Shown here one piece after another: positions 29,494 to 51,330 of a stretch of DNA of 64,000 nucleotides. Position numbers and translations under genes: made by a program. The notes under the pieces are model-generated. The model made no database searches, was not told the DNA's origin, and worked only from the letters and a program-made list of their open reading frames with translations. The DNA is from Nitrospirota bacterium (lineage in GTDB: Bacteria; Nitrospirota; UBA9217): positions 1 through 64,000 of the forward strand of contig CAVVOB010000027.1 of assembly GCA_963749655.1 (NCBI GenBank). The letters are read 5' to 3'. Positions within the stretch are counted from its first letter, which is position 1, and each line of letters opens with the position of its first letter.

Positions 29494-30774
29494 CTAGAAC
29501 AAGCGCACTTCCACTTCCTCCCCCGACTCGATCCCGATCTTGTTCACCGGCACCACCACCGTTCCCACGGCTTTTACGAGCGTGCTGATGAGACCCGATG
29601 CGCCGAACACGGGCCGCGCCCACAAGCCGTCGTCCCTCTTTTCGAGCATCACGCGGACGTGGTCCTCCCTGCCCGGACTCGACGCGATGCTGCGCGCGAG
29701 CTTCGCCTTCACGGAACGATAGGGCGGCGTGCCTTCGAGCGCGGGGTCCGGCCTCTCCCCGGTCAAGCGCAGGAGCGCGGGCTTGACGAAGATCTCGAAG
29801 CAGATATTGACGGCAACGGGATGGCCGGGGAGGCCGAAGACCGGCACCTGTCCGCGTCCGGCGCCGACAATGCCGATGATCAGGGGCTTGCCCGGCCTGA
29901 TCGAAACGCCGTGCACCATGACCCCCGGCGCGCCGGCGTCGTTGATCACCTTTGCCGTCAAGTCCGCCGTGCCCACGGAGCTGCCGCCGGTCATGAGGAC
30001 GAGCGAACAGTCCGCGACCGAGGAATCGAGCGCCTCGCGGAGGCGGTCGTACTCGTCGCGGATGATGCCTTTCTTGACGGGCATGCCGCCGGACTGCGCG
30101 ATCAGACCTTCCAGATTATAGGAATTGGTATCGCGGATCCTGCCCGGACCGGGGTTGCTGTCGGCGGGTACGATCTCGTTCCCTGTTGAAATAATGGCGA
30201 CCCTTGGCCGCTCGAAAACCGGGATGCGGGTGATCCCCATACCTGCCAGGGCGGCCATGTCCTGGGGCCGCATGCGGTGGCCGCGGGAAAGAACGGGCTC
30301 CCCTATGCGGATATCGTCGCCGCGTTGGATCACATTTTCAAGAGGCGCGACGGCCTTCACCGCCTCGATGGTCGCTGCATCGACTGCCTGGGTCTGCTCG
30401 AACATCACCACCGCGTCGGCGCCGGAGGGAAGCGCTCCGCCCGTGGCGATCTTCATGACTTCGCCTTTGCCTATGCCGCGACCGGGCATGGCCCCCATGG
30501 GGATATCTCCCACGACTGCGAGGAGCGCGGGCCGGGACTCGGCTGCGCCGAAAGTGTCGGCGCTCCGCACGGCATAGCCGTCCATGGTGGAGCGGTCGAA
30601 ATCGGGCAGATCAACGGGTGAGATTATGTCGGAGGCGAGAATACGGCCGAGGGAGGAGCTGATGGAAAGCTCCTCGGAAGGAATGGCGGGCACGGTGAAG
30701 TGCTCGTCAAGGACCTTGAGCGCTTCCTCTCGGGACACGACGCCGCGCCTGCCGAGCATGTCTTTGAGGGCCAT
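29494..30774 (-). CDS. moeA: Molybdopterin molybdotransferase
   Basis: RSTMDGYAV, TGGSSVG, RPGKP, LPGHP. Confidence 0.93.
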   Translation of the reverse strand: MALKDMLGRRGVVSREEALKVLDEHFTVPAIPSEELSISSSLGRILASDIISPVDLPDFDRSTMDGYAVRSADTFGAAESRPALLAVVGDIPMGAMPGRGIGKGEVMKIATGGALPSGADAVVMFEQTQAVDAATIEAVKAVAPLENVIQRGDDIRIGEPVLSRGHRMRPQDMAALAGMGITRIPVFERPRVAIISTGNEIVPADSNPGPGRIRDTNSYNLEGLIAQSGGMPVKKGIIRDEYDRLREALDSSVADCSLVLMTGGSSVGTADLTAKVINDAGAPGVMVHGVSIRPGKPLIIGIVGAGRGQVPVFGLPGHPVAVNICFEIFVKPALLRLTGERPDPALEGTPPYRSVKAKLARSIASSPGREDHVRVMLEKRDDGLWARPVFGASGLISTLVKAVGTVVVPVNKIGIESGEEVEVRLF

Positions 30775-30792
30775 GAACTCTCCCGAAAAAAA

Positions 30793-30866
30793 TTTACCGC
30801 GAAGGCGCAAAGGAAATCAGACTTCTTAAGTAAAATCTATTCGCGTTCCTTGCGCCCTGGCGGTTC
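30793..30866. repeat. Palindromic intergenic repeat (cgcgaag type), copy 3, inverted
   Basis: tttaccgcgaaggcgc...cttgcgccctggcggttc. Confidence 0.65.
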
Positions 30867-30908
30867 GATTTTGAGATCAAGATCCGGAAACGCCAGCTGC
30901 GGCCCGTA

Positions 30909-31841
30909 TTACTTCCCTTCCGTCTTTGGTTTCATCTTCCGGACGTAGGATGCGGCGCGCATGCCCGCGACCGCGCCTTCGCCTGCAGCTGACACGATCT
31001 GCATCCCGCCGCAGGTGCAGTCGCCGGCGGCGAACACGCCCTCGAGGTTCATGCGCTGGTGCTTGTCCACGATGAGGCAGCCGCGGTCGTCGGTGAGCCC
31101 TCCCGCTTTCAGGATGAGCTGCGATATCGGCGTCGAGCCCATGGCGATGAACACGCCCTCGAGCGGAATCACCTGCTCGTCTCCGTTCCTGCTGATCTTG
31201 AGCCCCGTGACGAGCTCGTCGCCCACGACCGCGTGGATCTTCGCGACCGGATGGATCTCCACGTTCGGCTTGGACCTGAGCCGGTTCATGACCGCTGTCA
31301 CGATGTCGAGCTCCTTGTGCGGGACCACGGTCACCTTCTCGGCGAGTTCGGCCAGGTGCAGCGCCTCTTCCGCTGCTTCGTCGTCCGCGCCGACGACGGC
31401 CACCTTTCTTCCTTTGAAAAAATTGCCGTCGCAGGTTGCGCAGTACGAAACGCCCTTGCCGAGGAACTCCTTGGCGCCGGGCACTTCGAGCTTCTTCCGG
31501 GCCACGCCGATGGCGATGATCACCGCGGTCCCCTCGTACATTTCGTCGCGGGTGCGCACGCGCTTGACGGCGCCGTTCAGCTCCATGTCCACTACTTCCA
31601 CGGGATAGACGATGGTGGCGCCGAACTTTTCAGCCTGCTTTGCCATGATCTGCGTGAGGTCCATTCCGTTGATGGTCTCGTAGCCGGGGTAGTTCTCGAT
31701 ATGGGCTATCTTCGCGGTGTAGCCGCCGACGAAATCCTTTTCGAGCAACACGCATTTCTGGCCCGCCCTGCCTAGATAGATCGCCGCAGTCAGGCCCGCC
31801 GGACCCGATCCGATGATTATTGTGTCGAAAACTTGCGCCAT
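30909..31841 (-). CDS. trxB: Thioredoxin reductase-like flavoprotein with a degenerate NADPH-binding site
   Basis: GSGPAG FAD motif, CATCD redox motif, FAAGD. Confidence 0.85.
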   Translation of the reverse strand: MAQVFDTIIIGSGPAGLTAAIYLGRAGQKCVLLEKDFVGGYTAKIAHIENYPGYETINGMDLTQIMAKQAEKFGATIVYPVEVVDMELNGAVKRVRTRDEMYEGTAVIIAIGVARKKLEVPGAKEFLGKGVSYCATCDGNFFKGRKVAVVGADDEAAEEALHLAELAEKVTVVPHKELDIVTAVMNRLRSKPNVEIHPVAKIHAVVGDELVTGLKISRNGDEQVIPLEGVFIAMGSTPISQLILKAGGLTDDRGCLIVDKHQRMNLEGVFAAGDCTCGGMQIVSAAGEGAVAGMRAASYVRKMKPKTEGK

Positions 31842-32380
31842 GGGTATTCCCTCCTCGATGATTGTGCTCCGCTCCGGAACATGCATGCTTTGGTTTTAGA
31901 ATCGGCTTATCCGACGGTCCTTGCAGAAAGGGCAGGATGTCCAGAAACGGAACAATGAGTTCATTTTATCGAAGAGACCGGAACAAGTCAATAAAGGAAA
32001 CCGGAGACCTGAGGGTCAAGGGTCAAGTAACATGGAGCAAGAAACGCCTTAGGGTCGAGGGTCCGGTTGCAAGGGGGCCGGGATACCAGCACTTCCAGCT
32101 TCCGGTCCCCGGTTCCCCGAACCCTGCCCCCGCTGTATGAAATTTCCTGCAACTGCACATATTCAGCTTTTTCAGTGGCATGAACCGGATCGTGTCTGCG
32201 ATTTCTGAGATGAATGAAGGAGAAACCATTCAGGTGATGCTCGAACACTGCGAGAGCTTTCATGAACTTGTCCCATCAAATCAACATCTTAATCTGTGCT
32301 TCTATTTTGGCATCTCAATTGTAATAAATAGTAAGTAGGGAACTGACTCGGAACACCATCATGAGAGGGGACGGTAACTT

Positions 32381-33259
32381 ATGCCGGGCATGCGTCTGCT
32401 TGTTCTGTCGGTGATCGCGATCGTGATCCTTGTTTTGGTTCCGGCCTGCAGCATGGAACACCTGCTGAGACGGGACAGCATGGTGCACTCGGGCAAAAGC
32501 GCCTGCGTCACCTGCCACCGTACAACGACTCCCTCTTCCTCGGACAGCGGCAGTTCTTTTGCTGGCGGCATCGATCCTTCCGCAGCATGCCTCGATTGCC
32601 ATCACTACAATGTGAACCACCATCCGGTGAATGTCGCGCCCGACGGCGAGTATGCGCGCAAAGCGACAGGAGCGCTTCCTCTCTACGACGGCCAGGTGCG
32701 GTGCCTGACCTGTCATCAGGCGCACACTGATGCCGGCTGCGGAAACCTCAAAGGGACGCCGGCTCTGCTCCGGGGAGGCCCCTATGCGGACAAGCGGACA
32801 TTGTGCTTCATGTGTCATTATGCAGAAAAATATGCGGAGATAAACCCGCACAAGATGCTCGATGAGAACGGCAACATCCGGACCGTAAACGGATCCGTCG
32901 TATGCCTGCTGTGCCACACCGAAAAGCCCGATCCCTCGGGCGATCCCGGGAATGTTGAATTCAAGGCCGATGTGGCGTTCCTGTGCCAGCGGTGTCATAC
33001 TCCCATGAAAGGCACCTTCCTCGACAGTCACCTCCATATAACGCCGTCGCGGTCGGTCAGATCGCTGATGAAAAAGAACGAAAAGGCCTCGGACATTGCC
33101 ATGCCCCTGGCCCTGGACGGGATGATCACCTGTTCAACGTGCCACAATCCTCACCAGTCCGGCGTCATCCTGCGCAAAGCTGCGAGCGCAGGGGCGGACG
33201 CACCCGGCAGGCTTCGCATTGCCAAAGAGGAAATGTGCACCGCATGCCACTTGATGTAA
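32381..33259 (+). CDS. Octaheme c-type cytochrome lipoprotein
   Basis: Eight CxxCH motifs (CVTCH, CLDCH, CLTCH, CFMCH, CLLCH, CQRCH, CSTCH, CTACH); LVPAC lipobox-like signal. Confidence 0.88.
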   Translation: MPGMRLLVLSVIAIVILVLVPACSMEHLLRRDSMVHSGKSACVTCHRTTTPSSSDSGSSFAGGIDPSAACLDCHHYNVNHHPVNVAPDGEYARKATGALPLYDGQVRCLTCHQAHTDAGCGNLKGTPALLRGGPYADKRTLCFMCHYAEKYAEINPHKMLDENGNIRTVNGSVVCLLCHTEKPDPSGDPGNVEFKADVAFLCQRCHTPMKGTFLDSHLHITPSRSVRSLMKKNEKASDIAMPLALDGMITCSTCHNPHQSGVILRKAASAGADAPGRLRIAKEEMCTACHLM

Positions 33260-33399
33260 AATGATTTCTCAGGGCACGGAGCCCCTGTATCCGCAGCGAC
33301 AATACTCCGCGCAGAGGAGCGAACCTGAACGGGAGAATGCATGGGTTTTACAGGCATTCACGCATCCTGAATCTGCGTAAACAGGAGATGATCAATCAT

Positions 33400-33930
33400 A
33401 TGAACAGAATAAACAAACTATTTATTCCCGTGCTGCTTCTCGGCCTCTCGACAATCGTCGTTCTCGAATTGATGGCTCTTGCAGTGCAGGCTGCGGAAAA
33501 AGACCTGCAATTTGTCCGCGGTGAGCGCGACAGGATCTGGTACCTGAAGACCGATACGCTGATCAGCACCGCTCCGGGCACCTTCAGCTTCTGGAACAAG
33601 GTCGTTCCGGCGAAAGGGAGCCCCTATTTTTCACGGATGGGGGAAGTCCTGCATCATGGGGGAAAAAGGACCGACCGGCTGGAGTTTATCCAGGCCCTGC
33701 AGGAGGTCGACTGCACAGCAGGCACCTCCAGGATCTTGAGCATTGTTTACTTCGACAAGAAGGAGCGCATCATACTCACGCAATATGATGCGAACAGCTC
33801 TCCCGCTCTTGCCGATTTTACCGGGGACGCAAAGCTGGTCGCAGAGACGGTCTGTGCCGAAGCATGGAGTGACAGCGGTGAGCAGTATGCTGTTGCGAGA
33901 TTCGCTCCCGCTCCCGCGCCAGGCAAGTAA
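33400..33930 (+). CDS. Exported protein, surface-adhesin E-like
   Basis: Hydrophobic N-terminus; WYL.TD, FW.K, EVDC...ETVC pattern. Confidence 0.55.
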   Translation: MNRINKLFIPVLLLGLSTIVVLELMALAVQAAEKDLQFVRGERDRIWYLKTDTLISTAPGTFSFWNKVVPAKGSPYFSRMGEVLHHGGKRTDRLEFIQALQEVDCTAGTSRILSIVYFDKKERIILTQYDANSSPALADFTGDAKLVAETVCAEAWSDSGEQYAVARFAPAPAPGK

Positions 33931-33989
33931 GATCCGGGCTGTGGAGAGCGCGGGAAAGAACAAAAAAGGACGGCGCTTTGCAGGTTGTT

Positions 33990-35177
33990 CTACAGGCTGA
34001 TGTTTTCCACCATGCTCCTGAAATACCGGCAGTTCGCCATGAGGTCCGGTCCGTGGGTGAACAGCCCGCCGCCGATCAGGAAGATCAGGTCCCGTCCGTA
34101 AGTTTCGATCATCTCCGGCACCCGTTCAATGCTCATGCCTCCTCCCGGCGCGGGGAAGATGGATTTGAGCGTCCCCATCGGTTCGGAGGCTGCGTCCGCA
34201 ATCTCCCTGCATTCCCTGCGGCTGAAGGAGAATCGCCCCCCGAAGTTCGGGAAGATGGTAGCGTCCGCGCCGCCGAGCCGGGCAAGCTGTCCGAAGACGA
34301 CTCCGTGGGACATGCCGCTGTTGCCCGTGACAAAACTCCCCTGCAGGGCCGGATGGGTAAGGATCGGAAGCGCGAGCCCGTCGTCCTCAGCCAGTTCCCG
34401 CATGCAGTCGTATCCCACCAGACCCGGCGCGACCATGAGCCCTCCGGCCCCCGCTTCCTTCGCAATCCTGGCCCGCTTCAAGACCTCGTTATTCGGCGCG
34501 GTCACGTTGGCTATATATATAGGAGGACTCCCTGATTCCCTGCCCGCCCGTTGTACCGCATCAGCGCAGCGTTTGACCCGCTCCGCAAAAGGCGAACAGC
34601 GCTGGTCCGTCAGGCCGTGGTCGTCCTTGATCATGTCCATGCCGCCCAGGGCGAACCGGTACGCGAGGTCGGCAAGTTCGGTGCAGGAAAGGCCCATGGG
34701 TTTTATCGCGGTCGAGAGGAGCGGCCGCTTCGGAACGTTCAATAATTTCCTGAGCCCGTCCCTGCCGAAGCGGGAGCCTTTAAAATTCCTGAGCAGCGTT
34801 TCAGGCAGATCGAGGTGCTCTACGCGGATGCCGGGCTTGATGCTGCTGTTTCCGAATATGACGTTCAGGAGCTGCGTGAGCTCGCCTGCGGCTATCTCGA
34901 CGGCATAGCTGACGATCGCCCGGAAGCTGTCATTGTCAAACCGTTCGAACAGTTCTATCCGTCCGAACACATGGTCCCGGATCACGCCTTCGGGAACTTC
35001 GTGAGCCGGAAATTCCACGGTCTGTTCGATGCAGATGTCCTCGGCTTTGGCGCGCGCTTCGCTCTCATTGCCGAAGATGCGGTAGAAGACGGAGAAGCGG
35101 CCTGAAGAAAAAAGAGAGGAGGGGGTAGAGGTTTTGTGAAGGATCATGGCGCTCCGTCTCTGTTGACGATTATTCAC
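33990..35177 (-). CDS. RuBisCO-like protein (form IV, R. rubrum MTRu-1-P isomerase type); alternative start 35147
   Basis: EQTVE, FGNSS, IKPMG, GGMDMIKDDHGL, IFPNFGGRF, PGGGM, IGGG. Confidence 0.9.
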   Translation of the reverse strand: MNNRQQRRSAMILHKTSTPSSLFSSGRFSVFYRIFGNESEARAKAEDICIEQTVEFPAHEVPEGVIRDHVFGRIELFERFDNDSFRAIVSYAVEIAAGELTQLLNVIFGNSSIKPGIRVEHLDLPETLLRNFKGSRFGRDGLRKLLNVPKRPLLSTAIKPMGLSCTELADLAYRFALGGMDMIKDDHGLTDQRCSPFAERVKRCADAVQRAGRESGSPPIYIANVTAPNNEVLKRARIAKEAGAGGLMVAPGLVGYDCMRELAEDDGLALPILTHPALQGSFVTGNSGMSHGVVFGQLARLGGADATIFPNFGGRFSFSRRECREIADAASEPMGTLKSIFPAPGGGMSIERVPEMIETYGRDLIFLIGGGLFTHGPDLMANCRYFRSMVENISL

Positions 35178-35628
35178 CGTTGCCGCTGTCCTTTTTAGTT
35201 TTTCCTTCGAGCTGTTTATATTTCCGGAACGCCACGGAAAGCGTCGACGACTCGGATATGGCCCCTGCCACGAGGAGAGCGTCCATGATCTCTTCGAGCG
35301 ACGCGCCGTGGTCCATGGCCCGCGCCATGTGCGCTTCGAGGCAGTGGTCGCACCGAAGTGCCGCGGCAGCGCCGATGGCCACCAGCTCCGCCGTCTTCCT
35401 GTCCAGCGTGGACGGCTCCTTATAGATCGCCATGCCCTTCAGGATGAAGGGGTTGAAATTCCGCGGCCGGTCCTTCAGCACGTTCAAGAGAAACCCCAGC
35501 TCCCCTTTCTTGTTCCGGTGCAGGTCCGCGAGCTCTTCCGTGAGCTCGTCCCTGCAAAGCAGCGCCCGGGTCTCTTTCACGAGGTTTGAATTCTTAACTT
35601 TTTTCGAAGGACTCTTAGCTTTTTTCAT
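35170..35628 (-). CDS. AhpD/CMD-family protein with CxxC
   Basis: ELVAIGAAAALRCDHCLEAH...GASLEEI. Confidence 0.85.
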   Translation of the reverse strand: MKKAKSPSKKVKNSNLVKETRALLCRDELTEELADLHRNKKGELGFLLNVLKDRPRNFNPFILKGMAIYKEPSTLDRKTAELVAIGAAAALRCDHCLEAHMARAMDHGASLEEIMDALLVAGAISESSTLSVAFRKYKQLEGKTKKDSGNGE

Positions 35629-35722
35629 TTAAATTTGCCAATCCGCGTTTCGCAATTATCTTCCCTGGCTACCGGCCCCTTGCCCCAGGCCCCCATCTTT
35701 TCCATTCCGCATTCTCATTGCT

Positions 35723-37720
35723 TTACAGGGCTTCCGCTTTCGCCTCGCTGTGAACGGCGCTGATGTGTGCCTTTGCAAGCTCTTCTTCGGATATGTTGAA
35801 TTTTTCCTTTGTCAGGTTTTCCGTTTCTTTGATCAGCGCCATGGCGTCCATGTCGTATTTCTTCAACAGATAATTTTTGCTCGCGCCGTGGGCATAGGTG
35901 TCTCTGAGGCCCATACGCACCAGTTTTTTCGAAATGCCCGCCTCAGCCATCTGTTCGGCGACGATCGATCCCAGGCCGCCGATGATGGTGTGGTTTTCCA
36001 TGGTGATCACGCCGTGGCGGGATTTCGCGATCGCCTCAAGCACGGATTCGTCATTGAAAGGCTTCAACGTCGAGATGTGCAGATGCTGGATCGACAGCCC
36101 CCGTTGTTTCAGGACCTGCACCGCCCGCAGCGCCTCTTCGGTCATAATGCCCGAGGTCAGGAGCGCGATGTCGCCTCCCGTCGAAAGCGTCCGCGCCCTA
36201 TTGAACTGCATGGGCTCCTCTTTCGGGAACAGCCTCGGGATCTCGCCCCTGAGCATCCGCACGTAGACCGGGCCTTTGATCTTTTCGACCACCGCGAGGA
36301 CCGACTCCACCTCGGTGGCATCGCCGCATTCAAGGACCGTCATGTTCGGCAGCGCCCGCATCAGCGCCACGTCTTCGATGGCCTGGTGAGTGGCCCCGCC
36401 GGGCGTGGTGATGCCGGGCAGGAACCCGATCATCCTGACCGGCAGATTGGGATAGGATACGGACATGGCGATCTGGTCAAAGGCGCGGCGATAGATGAAG
36501 ACCGCGAAAGTATGAACAAAGGGGATGAAACCCTCGCGCGCGAGGCCTGCCGCGAAGCTCAGCATGTTCTGCTCGGCAATGCCCATGGACAGGAACCGGT
36601 CGGGATAAGTCGACCGGAAAAGGTCGATCTCCGTCGAGCTGGTGAGGTCGGCCGAAAGCACGAGCACCTCCGGCTTGTCCGCGGCCCAGGCAACGAGGTT
36701 CTTCGCATGCACCCGCGTGACGATCTCGGGGCCAAGCGGCTTCTCCCCTTTTCCTTCTCCCCTTGAGGGAGAGGGCGGAGTGAGGGGTGCTTCAGAACCC
36801 GTCATCTCAGCCAGAGCAGCCAGATACTGTCCCTTTTCCTCGGCCGACGAAAAGCGGACATAATGCATCTTGGGGGCCCGGGACTTCAGGACCTCGATCC
36901 CCATCGCAGCATCGGTATCGCACAGGACGACGACGGGCCTGCCGTCCGGCGCCAGCGCCCCCGTGTCGGCAAGGCGCTTGATGTCGTGGCCGTTCACCCG
37001 GAACACGCGGCAGCCGAAGGCCTCGAGCCTCTTGTCAAGCGGCTCGATGTCCATGACCGAGCACATCTTTCCGTCGCACTGGAACCCGTTCACGTCCACG
37101 TAGATGACGACGTTGTCGAGCATATGGAAGGACATGGCCTGAAGCGCTTCCCAGGTCTGGCCGATCTGGAACTCGCCGTCGGACATGAAAAGGAAAACCC
37201 TGCCCTTCTCGCCCTTCCGTTTCCGCGCCATGGCAATGCCCGCGGCCTGGCTGATGCCCTGGCCGAGAGAGCCCGTCATGGTCTCCATGCCCGGCGAGTG
37301 CTCCGCGCCGATCATCTCGACGGAGCTGCCGTCCTTGTTGAACTGCAGGAGCCCCTCCTCGGCCATGCGGCCCGTTTCGATCAGGGTCGCATAGAGCACG
37401 AGCGCATACTGGGCCGGTGAAAGAAAGAAGCGGTCGCGGTCCGGGCCGGGCCCGTTGAAGTCCGCTCCCGTGAAATAATGAGGATTGCCGGGTCCGGGAA
37501 CTCCCGGAAACGGCCTGGGGACCAACGGAACTTCGATCGTTCCGAGGTTCATGACCTTGACGTAAAGCGTCGCCAGGATCTCCGCCGAGGAGCAGGCCTG
37601 GGAGAGGTATCCTCCGTTGTTCCTGATCGTGTGTTCGAGCACGCGGCGCCGGATACTTGCTGCAACGCGCTTCACCTCGCTCTGCCATGCCGCACCAATG
37701 TCTTTCTTCTCTGCCTTCAT
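35723..37720 (-). CDS. Transketolase-family ThDP enzyme, N and C subunits fused
   Basis: TGSLGQG, SDGE...N ThDP motif, GIAEQNM, THQ, ENH. Confidence 0.9.
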   Translation of the reverse strand: MKAEKKDIGAAWQSEVKRVAASIRRRVLEHTIRNNGGYLSQACSSAEILATLYVKVMNLGTIEVPLVPRPFPGVPGPGNPHYFTGADFNGPGPDRDRFFLSPAQYALVLYATLIETGRMAEEGLLQFNKDGSSVEMIGAEHSPGMETMTGSLGQGISQAAGIAMARKRKGEKGRVFLFMSDGEFQIGQTWEALQAMSFHMLDNVVIYVDVNGFQCDGKMCSVMDIEPLDKRLEAFGCRVFRVNGHDIKRLADTGALAPDGRPVVVLCDTDAAMGIEVLKSRAPKMHYVRFSSAEEKGQYLAALAEMTGSEAPLTPPSPSRGEGKGEKPLGPEIVTRVHAKNLVAWAADKPEVLVLSADLTSSTEIDLFRSTYPDRFLSMGIAEQNMLSFAAGLAREGFIPFVHTFAVFIYRRAFDQIAMSVSYPNLPVRMIGFLPGITTPGGATHQAIEDVALMRALPNMTVLECGDATEVESVLAVVEKIKGPVYVRMLRGEIPRLFPKEEPMQFNRARTLSTGGDIALLTSGIMTEEALRAVQVLKQRGLSIQHLHISTLKPFNDESVLEAIAKSRHGVITMENHTIIGGLGSIVAEQMAEAGISKKLVRMGLRDTYAHGASKNYLLKKYDMDAMALIKETENLTKEKFNISEEELAKAHISAVHSEAKAEAL

Positions 37721-37845
37721 ACCCTTCTTACGCTCTCCAATTCCGCATTGTTGCTAAAATACCGCCTGTTTCACAAAACAAAACCCCGACAAGCTTGCAG
37801 GCTCACAGGCCGGCAGGCCGGGCTTTGCAACGTCTGACGGCGTTG

Positions 37846-37874
37846 ATTATCACGCAAGGATGAACCGGTGTCAA
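37846..37874 (-). promoter_or_regulatory. Sigma-70-type promoter of the transketolase-AhpD-RLP operon
   Basis: Minus strand TTGACA-17 nt-GATAAT. Confidence 0.55.
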
Positions 37875-38125
37875 GGCGAAAGAGTCCCCGAACCGGACCA
37901 GGGAGCCACCGGTTCCGCGGACGATGCGGAACACACAGTGGGGACACAGAAAAAGTCTCGCAACATTTCATGAAGTATACCCTCCTCCTTGGTTTACTAT
38001 CTGCGTTTATCCGTGTTCACCTGTGGTTCCCTTCTCTTAAAATCCTGCCCGACCGGCCAGGTGGCTGCACTCCGGCCCGCACTACGGGGTCCGGATGCGT
38101 ACTTGCTATTTTTCATATTATTACA

Positions 38126-38154
38126 TTGACACGTTTTTATATATTTGATATAGT
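38126..38154 (+). promoter_or_regulatory. Sigma-70-type promoter
   Basis: TTGACA-17 nt-TATAGT upstream of the gene at 38221. Confidence 0.55.
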
Positions 38155-38220
38155 TGGTATGCCATACTATAGTAATATCAGCACTGTAGACACCTTAACT
38201 ATTACAAAGGAGGCACAAGA

Positions 38221-38691
38221 ATGAAAAAAATGTTGAGCTTGACGATTTCTTTTCTCCTCGTACTCGGGATGATCGCCCCGGTGCTCGCATCAGGACAATT
38301 CGACCACATCCTCACGACTGCGGATGTGGAAAAGGCCACCGGCTTGACGGGCGTAAAACAGGTGCCCCGCGAGCCGCTGAACAAGTTCAGGAACGGAGAC
38401 CTAAACTTCGTTCTGCGTGACGGAACGCCTGTTCTCATGATCCAGTTCCGGCCGTCGTTCGTGTTCGACGCGATGAAATCGGACAGCGGGTACTTCAAAT
38501 CGCCGCTTACGGGCATCGGCGAAGAGGCGTTCACCAGCCCGGCCTTCGACCCCCAGTTCTCGATCAATCTGCACAAGGGGCACTACGTGTCCGTCGTGAC
38601 CACCAATGTCGACCCCCGGGACAAGACCAGGACGGTCATCAATATGGACAAGCTTATCGTGATCGCCAAGATCGTGGCGTCGCGGATGTAG
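38221..38691 (+). CDS. Exported hypothetical protein
   Basis: aaggagg RBS; signal peptide ending VLA; own promoter and terminator. Confidence 0.8.
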   Translation: MKKMLSLTISFLLVLGMIAPVLASGQFDHILTTADVEKATGLTGVKQVPREPLNKFRNGDLNFVLRDGTPVLMIQFRPSFVFDAMKSDSGYFKSPLTGIGEEAFTSPAFDPQFSINLHKGHYVSVVTTNVDPRDKTRTVINMDKLIVIAKIVASRM

Positions 38692-38732
38692 CCCGTCTTC
38701 CCGACCATTAGCACATACAAAACAAAGACAGC

Positions 38733-38768
38733 AAAAAGCCGTCGGTTCAATTGATCCGGCGGCTTTTC
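38733..38768. terminator. Bidirectional rho-independent terminator
   Basis: aaaagccgtcgg...ccggcggctttt between convergent genes. Confidence 0.65.
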
Positions 38769-38924
38769 TATTTGCGTGATTTGGGGACAAATGATTTTAG
38801 AATCCGTTCTGTCCGCAGAGGACGCAGAAAAAGCGAATCGGTAATTTAAATCCGGGCATGCATCTGCGTAATCTGCGGACAAATTGCTCTTGGTAGGTTT
38901 TTATAGAATTTGCGGGGACTGCGC

Positions 38925-39389
38925 TCAGACAGCGACCTTGACCACGATCTTCAGAACAGAAGACGACGCACCGGCTGCAAGTTTCGGAGCATGCGCATCC
39001 TCGGGATAGAACACCGCAAGCTGACCTGCCTGCAGATGCACGGGCGTCCACTTCCCCGCCGGAATTGTGCCGAAGCAGATGTCCCGCTCGGCGCTGTACG
39101 CCTCCGTTACCGTCATCAGCTCCGCAGGCGCCCAGCCGATCATTTCCTCTCCCGACACAATGACCTGGACATCGATATAGGCCGCATGATGCTCGAACTT
39201 CGGCGTACCTGCAGCGGCAGTCTCATATCTCTGGACGGTCGCGAACACGCGCTGCCCGTCGATCTCCACCTTGCCGGCGGCCAAGCCGCCCAGGTCCGCG
39301 CGTTTCAGGAAGTCAATGGCGGTCCTCATAGACGGCGTCATCGCGATCTGATGTTCCATATGCCGGAGATCAGTTGCAAGCACGGTCAC
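38925..39389 (-). CDS. YhcH/YjgK/YiaL (DUF386) family protein
   Basis: FEHH..YIDVQ..SGEE, FYPEDAH.P, KIVVKV. Confidence 0.88.
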   Translation of the reverse strand: MTVLATDLRHMEHQIAMTPSMRTAIDFLKRADLGGLAAGKVEIDGQRVFATVQRYETAAAGTPKFEHHAAYIDVQVIVSGEEMIGWAPAELMTVTEAYSAERDICFGTIPAGKWTPVHLQAGQLAVFYPEDAHAPKLAAGASSSVLKIVVKVAV

Positions 39390-39425
39390 TCTCCCTGTGC
39401 GGGAACGGGGAATCAGACGGCCCGC

Positions 39426-39737
39426 TCACCGCAGCCTCGTCCTGCACTTTTTGCATACTTCACGGTGGATATCGGCGCCCAGGTACCTGTTGCATGATGG
39501 GCACCTCCAGTTGAAGGCCGTGAAGCCGATGAATGTCGCAATGCACCAGGCCTGCATCCCGAAGATCACGTCTTTGGAAAAGTTCCCGAAACGCTCAGGC
39601 TGTTTATAAATCACTGCAGACAGGAGCACGAGAAAGAGCGCTATGGCTATAGCAATGATCTGGCGGGACTGGCGCTCGTAAAATTTCCGTTTGATTGTCT
39701 CAGGGTCTTTTTCCCGAACCGGTGATCTTCTTGCCAT
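39426..39737 (-). CDS. Small membrane protein with C-terminal zinc ribbon
   Basis: Two TM segments; WRCPSC...CKKC. Confidence 0.7.
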   Translation of the reverse strand: MARRSPVREKDPETIKRKFYERQSRQIIAIAIALFLVLLSAVIYKQPERFGNFSKDVIFGMQAWCIATFIGFTAFNWRCPSCNRYLGADIHREVCKKCRTRLR

Positions 39738-50122: not shown

Positions 50123-51330
50123 GAAGACCGTCGAACGCAAAGAACTGGAACCCCGCCACCCTCGCCATCCACGGCCTGGGGCGGCTGCCCAAGGCGCACC
50201 ATGCCGGTCTCGACGCCGATCATGCACACCTCCAACTACTATTTCGACACTGCCGACGAGGTCGAGGATTTCATGCGCGCCAAGGGCCAGGGCAAGGTGA
50301 TCCGCGAGCACGAGTACGCCCGCTACGGCAACCCGACCCAGCAGGAGACGGAGCGCAAGCTCGCCGCGATCGAAGGGGCCGAGCAAGCCGTGCTCTACTC
50401 CTCGGGCATGGCAGCGGTGCTGCTCGACGATCATGACCTTCATGAAGCCCAAGGCGGCCACATCATCTTCACCGGCGACTGCTACCGCCAGACGCGCGAC
50501 TTCGCCACGAACTTCCTCGGGAAGTTCGGCATGGAGCATTCCATCGTGGACCCCACGGCCGAGGCCATCGAGAAGGCGATCAAGCCGAACACGAACATCA
50601 TCTTCACCGAGTCGCCCACGAACCCCTATCTGCGCGTGCTCGACATCCCGGCGATCGTGAAGGTGGCCAAGGCCAAGCAAGATCCTGACCATCATCGACG
50701 CCACGCTGGCCACGCCGTACAACATCAAGCCCATCGAGACTGGGCGTGGACATCGTGCTCCACTCGGCCACCAAGTACCAGGGCGGCCACAACGACCTCA
50801 TGGCAGGCGTGGCCCTCGGCTCCGCGGCCCTCATGACCGACTGCTACAAGATGCAGCGCATGATGGGCGCGACCCCGGGCCCGCTCACCTGCTTCCTGCT
50901 GGAGCGGGGACTCAAGACCTTCGGCATGCGCATGGAGCACCACAACAAGGCCGGACTCGCCATTGCCCAGATGCTGGAGGCCCATCCCAAGATCGAGAAG
51001 GTCTGGTACCCGGCGCTCAAGTCGCACCCGGACCACAAGCTCGCCATGGAGCAGATGAAAGGCTTCGGCAGCGTCATCAGCTTCCTGGTCAAGGGCGGCA
51101 ACAAGGAGACGCGGAAGTTCATCGACGCGCTTGAACTTTTCCTGATCACGCCGAGCCTCGGCGGCAGCGAGAGCCTGGTCACGCAGATGTGGGCCATGTC
51201 GTTCTTCGACTATCCCGAGCAGTTCCGCAAGGACATCGGCATGGTGGACAACCTGGTCCGGCTCGCCCTGGGTCTCGAGGACATCGACGACCTGATCGCC
51301 GACCTGAAGCAGGCCCTGGACCAGATCTGA
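50115..51330 (+). CDS. metB: Cystathionine gamma-synthase-family PLP enzyme, multiple frameshifts
   Basis: YARYGNPT, SSGMAA, ESPTNP, SATKYQGGH, SLGGSESL. Confidence 0.8.

Follow-up and report, generated by a model that had tools for sequence, protein, structure and literature searches.

The window analysed here is a stretch of 64,000 nucleotides, positions 1 to 64,000 of contig CAVVOB010000027.1, from GenBank assembly GCA_963749655.1 of a Nitrospirota bacterium, whose genome comprises 4.27 Mb on 39 contigs and is 86.6% complete. Three co-directional open reading frames (ORFs) on the minus strand fill positions 33990-37720 and encode, in the order of transcription, a transketolase (TK)-like enzyme dependent on thiamine diphosphate (ThDP), a protein of the AhpD/CMD family and a RuBisCO-like protein (RLP) of the DeepYkr type (Table 1). 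A promoter lies about 125 nt 5' of the TK start, in a region that holds five promoter-like sites compared to 1.7 +/- 1.5 in shuffled sequences. Among 26 sequences aligned from upstream of orthologous TK genes, 14 keep both of its hexamers and their flanks. No terminator-like site is found on the minus strand between the TK, AhpD and RLP genes. A first-pass annotation, made from the letters of the window, had described a three-gene operon with its own promoter and an RLP carrying KDDH and FPNxGGRF motifs, and all of these are present, the second motif as FPNFGGRF. Although the RLP frame is open further upstream to a GTG codon, translation probably starts at the ATG at 35147 and not at the GTG at 35177, because orthologues align from residue 10-11 onwards and the ATG is preceded by GGAG.

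Table 1. Features of the operon and of its surroundings in the window
Feature	Position	Strand	Remarks
Promoter, sigma-70-like	37846..37874	minus	TTGACA-17-GATAAT, 11/12 consensus matches
TK-like ThDP enzyme, 665 aa	35723..37720	minus	Pfam Transketolase_N, Transket_pyr, Transketolase_C
Linker between TK halves	~36725..36847	minus
AhpD/CMD-family protein, 152 aa	35170..35628	minus	CMD / AhpD core
CDHCLEAH motif	35329..35352	minus	AhpD residues 93-100
DeepYkr-type RLP, 385 aa	33990..35147	minus	RuBisCO_large; ORF open to GTG at 35177 (395 aa)
KDDH motif	34617..34628	minus	RLP residues 184-187
FPNFGGRF motif	34230..34253	minus	RLP residues 309-316
Conserved promoter region	37839..37874	minus	includes ~20 nt around the -10 hexamer with a short inverted repeat
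GC-rich hairpin and U-run	37756..37812	minus	between promoter and TK start codon
Thioredoxin-reductase-like flavoprotein	30909..31886	minus	291 bits, below cut-off 343
MoeA-type molybdopterin molybdotransferase	29494..30810	minus
PLP enzyme of Cys/Met metabolism	50198..51330	plus	ORFs 50201-50836 and 50746-51330; 125 + 92 bits on two pieces

The distribution of these genes was followed with the TK of the window as query over one genome per GTDB species, which yielded 80 loci spanning about 13 phyla. An RLP gene lies downstream of the TK gene at 44 of them, at a distance of 300 nt or less in 39 cases, and the two genes overlap or abut at many loci; 28 loci have room for an RLP gene without carrying one, and a contig end truncates the other eight. 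Carriers of the TK are found in Spirochaetota (including Leptospira and Treponema), Acidobacteriota, Anaerolineae, Elusimicrobia, Thermoguttaceae, Synergistia, NC10, Calditrichales, Myxococcales, FCPU426, Vulcanimicrobiota and many Bacillota, with Hungatella hathewayi WAL-18680 and a metagenome-assembled Leptospira biflexa as named examples. Furthermore, about 16 kb were fetched around 56 RLP genes of the window's own phylum and scored by tblastn. Among the 29 loci with close RLP orthologues (72-80% identity), the fetched stretch contains the TK gene at 17, mostly directly upstream of the RLP gene, and an AhpD orthologue at 11. In a second family (f2, 57-59% identity), a split TK abuts the RLP gene upstream at all five loci and AhpD is present at none of the five, while a TK is missing from all 18 loci whose RLPs are distant (38-51% identity), four of which have a fused or adjacent cupin. 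Within the window's family, the 45 genomes scored for both genes, which are kin to one another, comprise 32 with RLP and TK, two with RLP only, none with TK only and 11 with neither.

The conserved unit is the TK-RLP pair and not the trio, and in different phyla the ThDP enzyme is a genuine and conserved companion of RLPs of this clade. The trio, which the first-pass annotation had taken as the unit of interest, does not recur as such: AhpD is found at 3/80 TK loci, 0/5 loci of f2 and in 17/43 TK-positive genomes of the family. The confinement of the trio to this family, together with the lack of a TK gene within some 7 kb of the RLP gene at 12 of 29 close orthologous loci, might suggest three functionally unrelated genes that happen to share a promoter. 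Such a chance arrangement is extremely unlikely, however, given the TK-RLP adjacency across phyla, the overlapping or abutting genes and the near-perfect co-occurrence in the family. Other RLP neighbours scanned in the family, namely genes for a hybrid-cluster protein, a PIN protein, a chromate transporter, a DNA methylase, a siroheme synthase and a ketopantoate-reductase-like protein, look unrelated. The pair appears pseudogene-like in one genome (G200, locus L078), in which the TK gene has eight in-frame stops and the RLP gene has stops and lies in two pieces, with a strong cupin elsewhere; in another (G155, locus L076) the RLP gene is spread over two frames.

The RLP matches PF00016 (RuBisCO_large) with 103.9 bits compared to a cut-off of 30.1, and reaches no curated NCBIfam cut-off. 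Among solved structures it scores best on 3qfw (245 bits), which we take to be a DeepYkr RLP, followed by the MtnW-type enolases 4nas (171 bits) and 2oek (155 bits), the Photo-type RLP 1ykw (142 bits) and 3nwr (84 bits), and the model of the apionate-pathway protein OiaX is matched with only 75 bits (cut-off 700). When 1.84 billion cluster representatives were searched exhaustively, 391 matched the RLP at E <= 1e-30. In 28 of the 150 best representatives a cupin domain is fused to the RLP, as judged by BLASTP, and many relatives with 40-50% identity to the window's protein have this fusion. Pfam analysis of ten long representatives identifies Cupin_2 in eight; of the other two, one has an inositol-monophosphatase domain and one has no additional domain. 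The inositol-monophosphatase-family domain is fused N-terminally to a DeepYkr-type RLP in P0168 (726 aa). In the fusion protein P0191, the cupin part matches 3jzv ('Rru_A2000', E = 4.9e-21), presumably the methylsulfurylase of Rhodospirillum rubrum, and the RLP part reaches 232 bits on 3qfw, which supports the DeepYkr assignment of that structure and does not exceed the score of the window's RLP.

In a FastTree phylogeny of 223 sequences, rooted with form III RuBisCO of the same phylum, the TK-linked RLPs form a nested subclade, with the cupin-linked and cupin-fused clades sister and basal to it. The active-site columns KDDH, HPA, PNxGGRF and GG are common to the window's RLP and the cupin-fusion clade, and a comparison of the 58 TK-linked with the 32 cupin-linked RLPs yields no column that is conserved to 90% or more on both sides but differs between them. 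By these comparisons the RLP is a member of the DeepYkr clade of 5-methylthioribulose-1-phosphate isomerases. It does not group with the apionate- or hamamelose-type RLPs, a placement that the first-pass annotation had named among the outcomes that would refute its proposal; its assignment to the R. rubrum type is supported by the best match on 3qfw and the nesting among cupin-linked clades. The RLP1 proteins of R. rubrum and Rhodopseudomonas palustris catalyse a 1,3-isomerisation of the methylthioribulose-1-phosphate type (PMC5893883). Because of the placement in the DeepYkr clade, 1,3-isomerisation is the simplest reaction to assign, and the window's enzyme is presumed to be a 5-methylthioribulose-1-phosphate / 5-deoxyribulose-1-phosphate 1,3-isomerase. 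More distant RLPs of the phylum (38-51% identity) lie near a radical S-adenosylmethionine (SAM) protein of 725-811 aa at seven loci (L077, L079, L080, L082, L083, L084 and L092), without TK or cupin; an HD-domain protein is encoded at some of these loci, and genes for a 1-Cys peroxiredoxin and a pentapeptide-repeat protein are also found near them.

No Rru_A2000-type cupin is found in the genome of the window, at its 86.6% completeness, with the hidden Markov model (HMM), the best score being 27 bits compared to 104-190 bits for RLP-associated cupins, and the cupin alignment A1 gives no match there at E <= 1e-5. Likewise, no cupin is present at any of the 80 TK loci, and five TK genomes from other phyla contain no strong cupin (best 43 bits). 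The cupin absence stated in the first-pass annotation holds for this genome at the sensitivity of the HMM, and, AhpD apart, the neighbourhood that it singled out, RLP with TK and without cupin, is found again at the 44 TK loci with an RLP gene. A strong cupin orthologue (150-216 bits) does occur in 7 of 61 genomes of the family. One of these genomes (G069) is among the two that have an RLP but no TK orthologue, and its cupin (154 bits with the HMM, 216 bits with A1) adjoins an RLP that is nested in the TK-linked clade.

The TK-like protein keeps all three domains of a transketolase, namely the N-terminal ThDP domain, the pyrimidine-binding domain and the C-terminal domain, and is a fusion of N- and C-terminal halves that are encoded by separate genes in most other phyla. 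Its best solved relatives are the human enzyme (4kxu) and the split TK of Carboxydothermus hydrogenoformans (6yaj/6yak), with 213-220 bits. It reaches no curated NCBIfam cut-off: the best match, NF004559, gives 376 bits against 488, and the dxs model gives 185 bits against 466 on the C-terminal half. The ThDP/Mg motif (SDG...N) and the catalytic Glu that activates the cofactor (IAEQN) are retained, as are His245 (human His258) and the Arg336, Ser362 and Arg491 of the phosphate site (human Arg318, Ser345 and Arg474). Five human residues are replaced, however, namely His37 by Tyr38, Lys75 by Pro102, His77 by Gln104, His416 by Leu434 and Asp424 by Gly441. Tyr38, Gln104, Leu434 and Gly441 stand in place of canonical substrate-binding residues, the roles of which we assume from the human and yeast enzymes (yeast His30, His69, His469 and Asp477). 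Position 104 is of particular interest, as it aligns with the His (human His77, yeast His69) that presumably binds the C1 hydroxyl of the donor, and the C1 substituent in the presumed products of the RLP is SCH3 or H. This set of replacements runs through the whole RLP-linked clade, except that five of the 47 aligned TK rows (L107, L109, L112, L135 and L143) have His where the clade usually has Gln104. His is found at this position also in a sister clade and in the canonical TK of the genome. The Pro102/Gln104 pair alone marks the RLP-linked clade.

The retained domain set, ThDP motif, catalytic Glu and Arg-Ser-Arg phosphate site would also suit an ordinary transketolase that transfers a ketol unit to an aldose of the pentose phosphate pathway, the RLP then turning a ribulose-1-phosphate-type sugar into a xylulose-5-phosphate-type donor. 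The sister clade, in which most of these replacements recur, is encoded in operons with a sugar-alcohol phosphotransferase system (PTS) of the pentitol type, and DhaK and DhaL genes stand beside the pair in one Bacillota locus and are suggested for a second, both of which are in line with such a role. It is nevertheless decidedly unlikely, as the genome already has a separate housekeeping TK in which all five positions hold the canonical residues (His, Lys, His, His and Asp), the window's protein stays below the NCBIfam transketolase cut-off, the operons that include kinase and isomerase genes hold MtnK and MtnA above their equivalog cut-offs and not a ribokinase, and a 1-methylthio or 1-deoxy donor would yield just another dead-end sugar. 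The housekeeping TK is a split enzyme (contig C30, 230488-232368), the N-terminal half of which is matched by tblastn in two pieces, 230488-230859 and 230855-231244, that lie in different frames owing to a frameshift or an assembly error. At two loci from Parasporobacterium metagenome-assembled genomes (L169 and L173), a TK with the sister-clade signature (Cys/His/Asn/Val) is followed by an RLP that is 46% identical to that of the window.

The third protein of the operon matches PF02627 with 60.3 bits (cut-off 23) and TIGR00778 with 42.5 bits, and its CxxCxxxH motif, here CDHCLEAH, is invariant in 14/14 orthologues. An AhpD orthologue is present in 18 of 61 genomes of the family, of which 17 are TK-positive and one is RLP-positive; among the 18 TK-negative genomes only one has it. 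The gene adjoins that of the TK in some genomes and that of the RLP, with the TK elsewhere, in others, and the three TK loci that carry it are all from Nitrospirota. Because the protein is restricted to RLP or TK genomes and yet often absent from them, it is linked to the module but optional: AhpD is a lineage-specific accessory outside the two-enzyme core. The first-pass annotation had given it a place in the unit, which does not stand, as 26 of 43 TK-positive genomes lack it, whereas the tie to RLP and TK genomes does. A role as a thiol/disulfide helper of the module is plausible, and this role is the least certain part of the proposal. No AhpC-type peroxiredoxin is encoded near the gene among the ten ORFs scanned (29494-39497), a survey of the neighbourhood with no genome-wide AhpC search. 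A thioredoxin-reductase-like flavoprotein is encoded downstream on the same strand, and such a neighbour could in principle recycle a CxxC protein.

A more direct part for this protein has to be considered, in which its dithiol strips the methylthio group from 1-methylthio-xylulose-5-phosphate to give 1-deoxy-xylulose-5-phosphate (DXP), methanethiol and a protein disulfide, and the TK works later or on the minor ribulose epimer. The exclusive occurrence of the orthologue in RLP or TK genomes (18/18), the invariant motif and its position next to the RLP in three genomes (G115, G103 and G091), with the TK far off or on another contig, are in favour of this, and the known cupin reaction requires a thiol (PMC5893883). 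We consider it very unlikely all the same. As AhpD is absent at 41/44 TK-RLP loci and from 26/43 TK-positive family genomes, it is no general solution; the genome moreover encodes six CMD-family paralogues, and to our knowledge C-S cleavage by a protein of the AhpD family is without precedent.

The genes that would supply an RLP of this type are present elsewhere in the genome. MtnP/MTAP (TIGR01694, 328 bits) and MtnA (TIGR00512, 446 bits), both of which the first-pass annotation had proposed to look for, score above their cut-offs, and a true DXS is found with 864 bits. A class II aldolase (PF00596) gives no match in this genome, which is 86.6% complete. Five Bacillota loci (L137, L141, L148, L149 and L153) combine a sugar ABC transporter, MtnK, MtnA, the two TK halves (TK_N and TK_C) and the RLP, often followed by a FucU/RbsD-like mutarotase, with scores in such an operon of 411 bits for MtnK (cut-off 275) and 424 bits for MtnA (cut-off 279). 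In addition, MtnA is above its cut-off in 5/5 genomes from other phyla that were checked. Further neighbours of the pair are a CysK/M-family gene just upstream in three Spirochaetota loci, a gene for a PduL-type phosphate acyltransferase two genes after the RLP in three Oscillospiraceae-type loci (L151, L154 and L157) and a GAPDH gene in first or second place behind the RLP in three Nitrospirota loci. As hints on the products these neighbours are weak, each being known from a few related loci.

The same context could be read without any sulfur chemistry, the module serving to dispose of the 5'-deoxyadenosine or 5-deoxyribose that radical SAM enzymes produce. The RLP would then form DXP, and the TK would cleave it to glyceraldehyde-3-phosphate (G3P) and hydroxyethyl-ThDP, which would end up as acetaldehyde or, with an AhpD-like disulfide as oxidant, at the acetyl level. 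B12/radical-SAM genes directly upstream of the TK in two loci (L112 and L124), the radical SAM protein near distant RLPs of the phylum at seven loci, the likeness of the C-terminal half of the TK to DXS, and the PduL-type gene and LsrF-like thiolase of some loci, which suit an acetyl-level C2 product, are all consistent with this. Furthermore, MtnK/MtnA-type genes also serve 5-deoxyribose in the dihydroxyacetone phosphate (DHAP) shunt (PMC13474568, PMC6079011). We regard this exclusive use as unlikely, since the RLP cannot be told apart in its active site from cupin-linked RLPs, the cupin of which depends on the methylthio group, the CysK/M-family gene adjoins the pair in Spirochaetota and the CxxC protein of the window's family is restricted to RLP or TK genomes. 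Cleavage of DXP also seems wasteful, because DXP is useful to a genome with the DXS of the methylerythritol phosphate (MEP) pathway.

Preferred here is the reading that the operon contains a core of RLP and divergent TK that finishes the salvage of the ribose moiety of 5'-methylthioadenosine (MTA), and probably also of 5'-deoxyadenosine, to which we assign even odds (a probability of about 0.5). MtnP and MtnA, the genes of which are present outside the operon, would deliver 5-methylthioribulose-1-phosphate or 5-deoxyribulose-1-phosphate, which the RLP, judged by its homologues, would convert to 1-methylthio-xylulose-5-phosphate or DXP by 1,3-isomerisation. Adjacency and co-occurrence suggest that the TK-like enzyme would take this xylulose-5-phosphate analogue as a ketol donor: ThDP would be added to C2, the C2-C3 bond cleaved and G3P freed. 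The subsequent fate of the C2 unit is speculative. In the favoured version, methanethiolate would be β-eliminated from the ThDP enamine to leave acetyl-ThDP, so that methanethiol, which could be re-used, and acetate or acetyl phosphate would result without the need for glutathione, O2 or an acceptor. Alternatively, the enamine could be protonated and (methylthio)acetaldehyde or acetaldehyde released, which would amount to a G3P version of the DHAP shunt. In Nitrospirota, the AhpD protein might act as a thiol/disulfide partner, for example for methanethiol adducts or mixed disulfides, or else, with the deoxy substrate, oxidise hydroxyethyl-ThDP in the manner of lipoamide or accept its acyl group. 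That the ThDP enzyme would cleave or transfer the C2 unit and the dithiol protein would handle the sulfur, as the first-pass annotation had it, is an inference.

The claim in its full form goes further, and we hold it to be doubtful as a whole, although worth stating tentatively. It would have a widespread branch of SAM by-product metabolism, independent of glutathione and O2, in which a DeepYkr RLP feeds 1-methylthio-xylulose-5-phosphate and DXP to a dedicated ThDP-dependent TK-like lyase, with AhpD as a redox or acyl partner in Nitrospirota, and in which the transketolase family would gain a reaction new to it, G3P release with phosphoketolase-like β-elimination of methanethiol to acetyl-ThDP. 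Searches of full-text literature, a body of text that largely leaves out subscription journals and contains no supplements, found no paper that connects an RLP to a transketolase in the metabolism of MTA or 5'-deoxyadenosine; within that scope, the first-pass statement that no characterisation of the combination is known agrees with the literature.

Several observations weigh against the preferred reading. The genomes of the family are related, and the co-occurrence counts therefore overstate the independence of the cases. Tyr38, Leu/Val434 and Gly441 are common to the sister TK clade (about 50-60% identity), whose neighbours encode a galactitol-type PTS IIC component, a DeoR regulator, a Zn-dehydrogenase and a class II aldolase/epimerase, with no RLP. 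This sister clade may consist of ordinary transketolases, and because it has these residues without an RLP, they are by themselves no sign of a new substrate; their use as marks of one is weakened accordingly. An ordinary TK, furthermore, requires an aldose acceptor, and we know of no precedent in the transketolase family for a lyase or elimination outcome. A strong cupin (150-154 bits) is encoded elsewhere in 5 of 43 TK-positive family genomes (G147, G151, G179, G205 and G200), so that TK and cupin are not strict alternatives, and strict exclusivity of the two was rejected. The replacement of the cupin envisaged in the first-pass annotation is thus borne out insofar as the ThDP enzyme is the conserved partner of the RLP, but not as a clean displacement. 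Phylogenetic profiles do not isolate the pathway either, because MtnA is widespread (53/60 family genomes, including RLP-negative ones) and the class II aldolase, present in 18/43 TK-positive and 11/18 TK-negative family genomes, is not complementary to the TK; MtnA as a profile marker and the aldolase as a complement of the TK were dropped for these reasons.

Several Bacillota TK-RLP loci count among these points as well, as they carry a class II aldolase-family gene. At one Bacillota locus (L137, 9178-10814), genes for an LsrF-type 3-hydroxy-5-phosphonooxypentane-2,4-dione thiolase (493 bits against a cut-off of 297) and an Rpe/LsrE-like epimerase come after that of the RLP, which hints at a link of the module to 1-deoxy-pentulose phosphate chemistry of the autoinducer-2 type. 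At another (L148, 9525-11457), DhaK and DhaL genes follow the RLP and a FucU-like gene; for a near-identical Lachnospiraceae locus (L149), DhaK/DhaL are suggested by cluster membership. A TK beside a dihydroxyacetone kinase recalls the pair of dihydroxyacetone synthase and dihydroxyacetone kinase in methylotrophic yeasts. Because Bacillota loci carry aldolase, LsrF-/Rpe-like and DhaK/DhaL genes, the downstream chemistry may differ between lineages.

All cells form MTA and 5'-deoxyadenosine, both inhibitors of the enzymes from which they arise, and the recovery of their carbon and sulfur by anaerobes without glutathione is only partly known. If true, the preferred reading would provide a third exit from 5-methylthioribulose-1-phosphate, besides the cupin route and the aldolase route, and a second pathway context for the DeepYkr clade of the RuBisCO superfamily. 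It may also bring to light a member of the transketolase family that works as a lyase or by elimination and which, should the lyase reading hold, would be spread over gut Clostridia, spirochaetes and soil Nitrospirota.

Around the operon, some further features deserve mention. The roughly 20 nt around the -10 hexamer are strongly conserved, and this stretch is also found upstream of other TK genes (e.g. L042, L054, L062, L065, L100 and L129). It may be a candidate operator for some regulator. In a regulon search, the 20-nt motif occurs as a single copy in the genome at three mismatches or fewer. The sequence 3' of the promoter is not conserved, and the 125-nt leader folds no better than shuffled sequences (z = 0.73); a riboswitch in it was dismissed, as an Rfam search of 33000-39000 returned two matches only, both at chance level. 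The GC-rich hairpin with a U-run in this leader is attenuator-like in appearance; its stability is no higher than that of shuffled sequences, and it is not conserved at orthologous loci. A look-up of sequencing runs for signs of expression listed no RNA run and three DNA runs, with 5-6% of the words. Downstream on the same strand lies a gene for a MoeA-type molybdopterin molybdotransferase. On the plus strand, a pyridoxal phosphate (PLP) enzyme of Cys/Met metabolism related to O-acetylhomoserine sulfhydrylase is split over two frames, reflecting a frameshift or an assembly error.

The TK-RLP pair can be seen as a variant of known SAM by-product salvage, in which the gene pair is well supported and the chemistry is inferred. 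In the MTA-isoprenoid shunt of R. rubrum and R. palustris, MtnP, MtnA and the DeepYkr protein RLP1 are followed by a cupin that acts as 1-methylthio-xylulose-5-phosphate methylsulfurylase (PMC5893883). The window's genome resembles this system in holding MtnP and MtnA and an RLP of the same clade with the same active-site columns. It differs in that the conserved neighbour is a divergent TK-like enzyme in place of the Rru_A2000-type cupin, which was not found here, in that TK-RLP carriers include lineages usually regarded as anaerobic, and in that DXP for isoprenoids would be an unlikely product if the TK cleaves it. The DHAP shunt consists of MtnP or MtnN/MtnK, MtnA and the class II aldolase Ald2/DrdA (PMC13474568). 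The Bacillota operon follows the same logic, with MtnK and MtnA placed between sugar uptake and a proposed cleavage of a C-C bond, and sugars derived from both MTA and 5'-deoxyadenosine would probably be converted to a triose phosphate and a C2 fragment. In the proposed route, however, RLP and TK, two enzymes, would take the place of the aldolase, for which no PF00596 match was found in the window's genome, and would yield G3P instead of DHAP.

Similar comparisons can be made for the individual proteins. The AhpD protein shares the CMD domain and the CxxCxxxH motif with its family (1vke, 1p8c and the Mycobacterium tuberculosis AhpD 1gu9), whereas no AhpC was found among the ten neighbouring ORFs and its orthologues are confined to RLP or TK genomes. 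Compared to short and split transketolases (4kxu, 6yaj/6yak), the TK-like enzyme has the same three domains, ThDP motif, catalytic Glu and Arg-Ser-Arg site, but differs in the five replaced human residues, the score below the NCBIfam cut-off and the linkage of its gene to an RLP. With DXS, which handles the C2-C3 bond of DXP, it shares the ThDP superfamily, and its C-terminal half matches the dxs model, although it scores far below the cut-off of that model, which the genome's own DXS clearly exceeds. In phosphoketolase, as in the turnover of halopyruvates such as fluoropyruvate, a β-leaving group is expelled from the C2 enamine of ThDP to give acetyl-ThDP. The same expulsion step is proposed here for methanethiol, as a mechanistic analogy between enzymes that have no sequence relationship beyond the ThDP fold.

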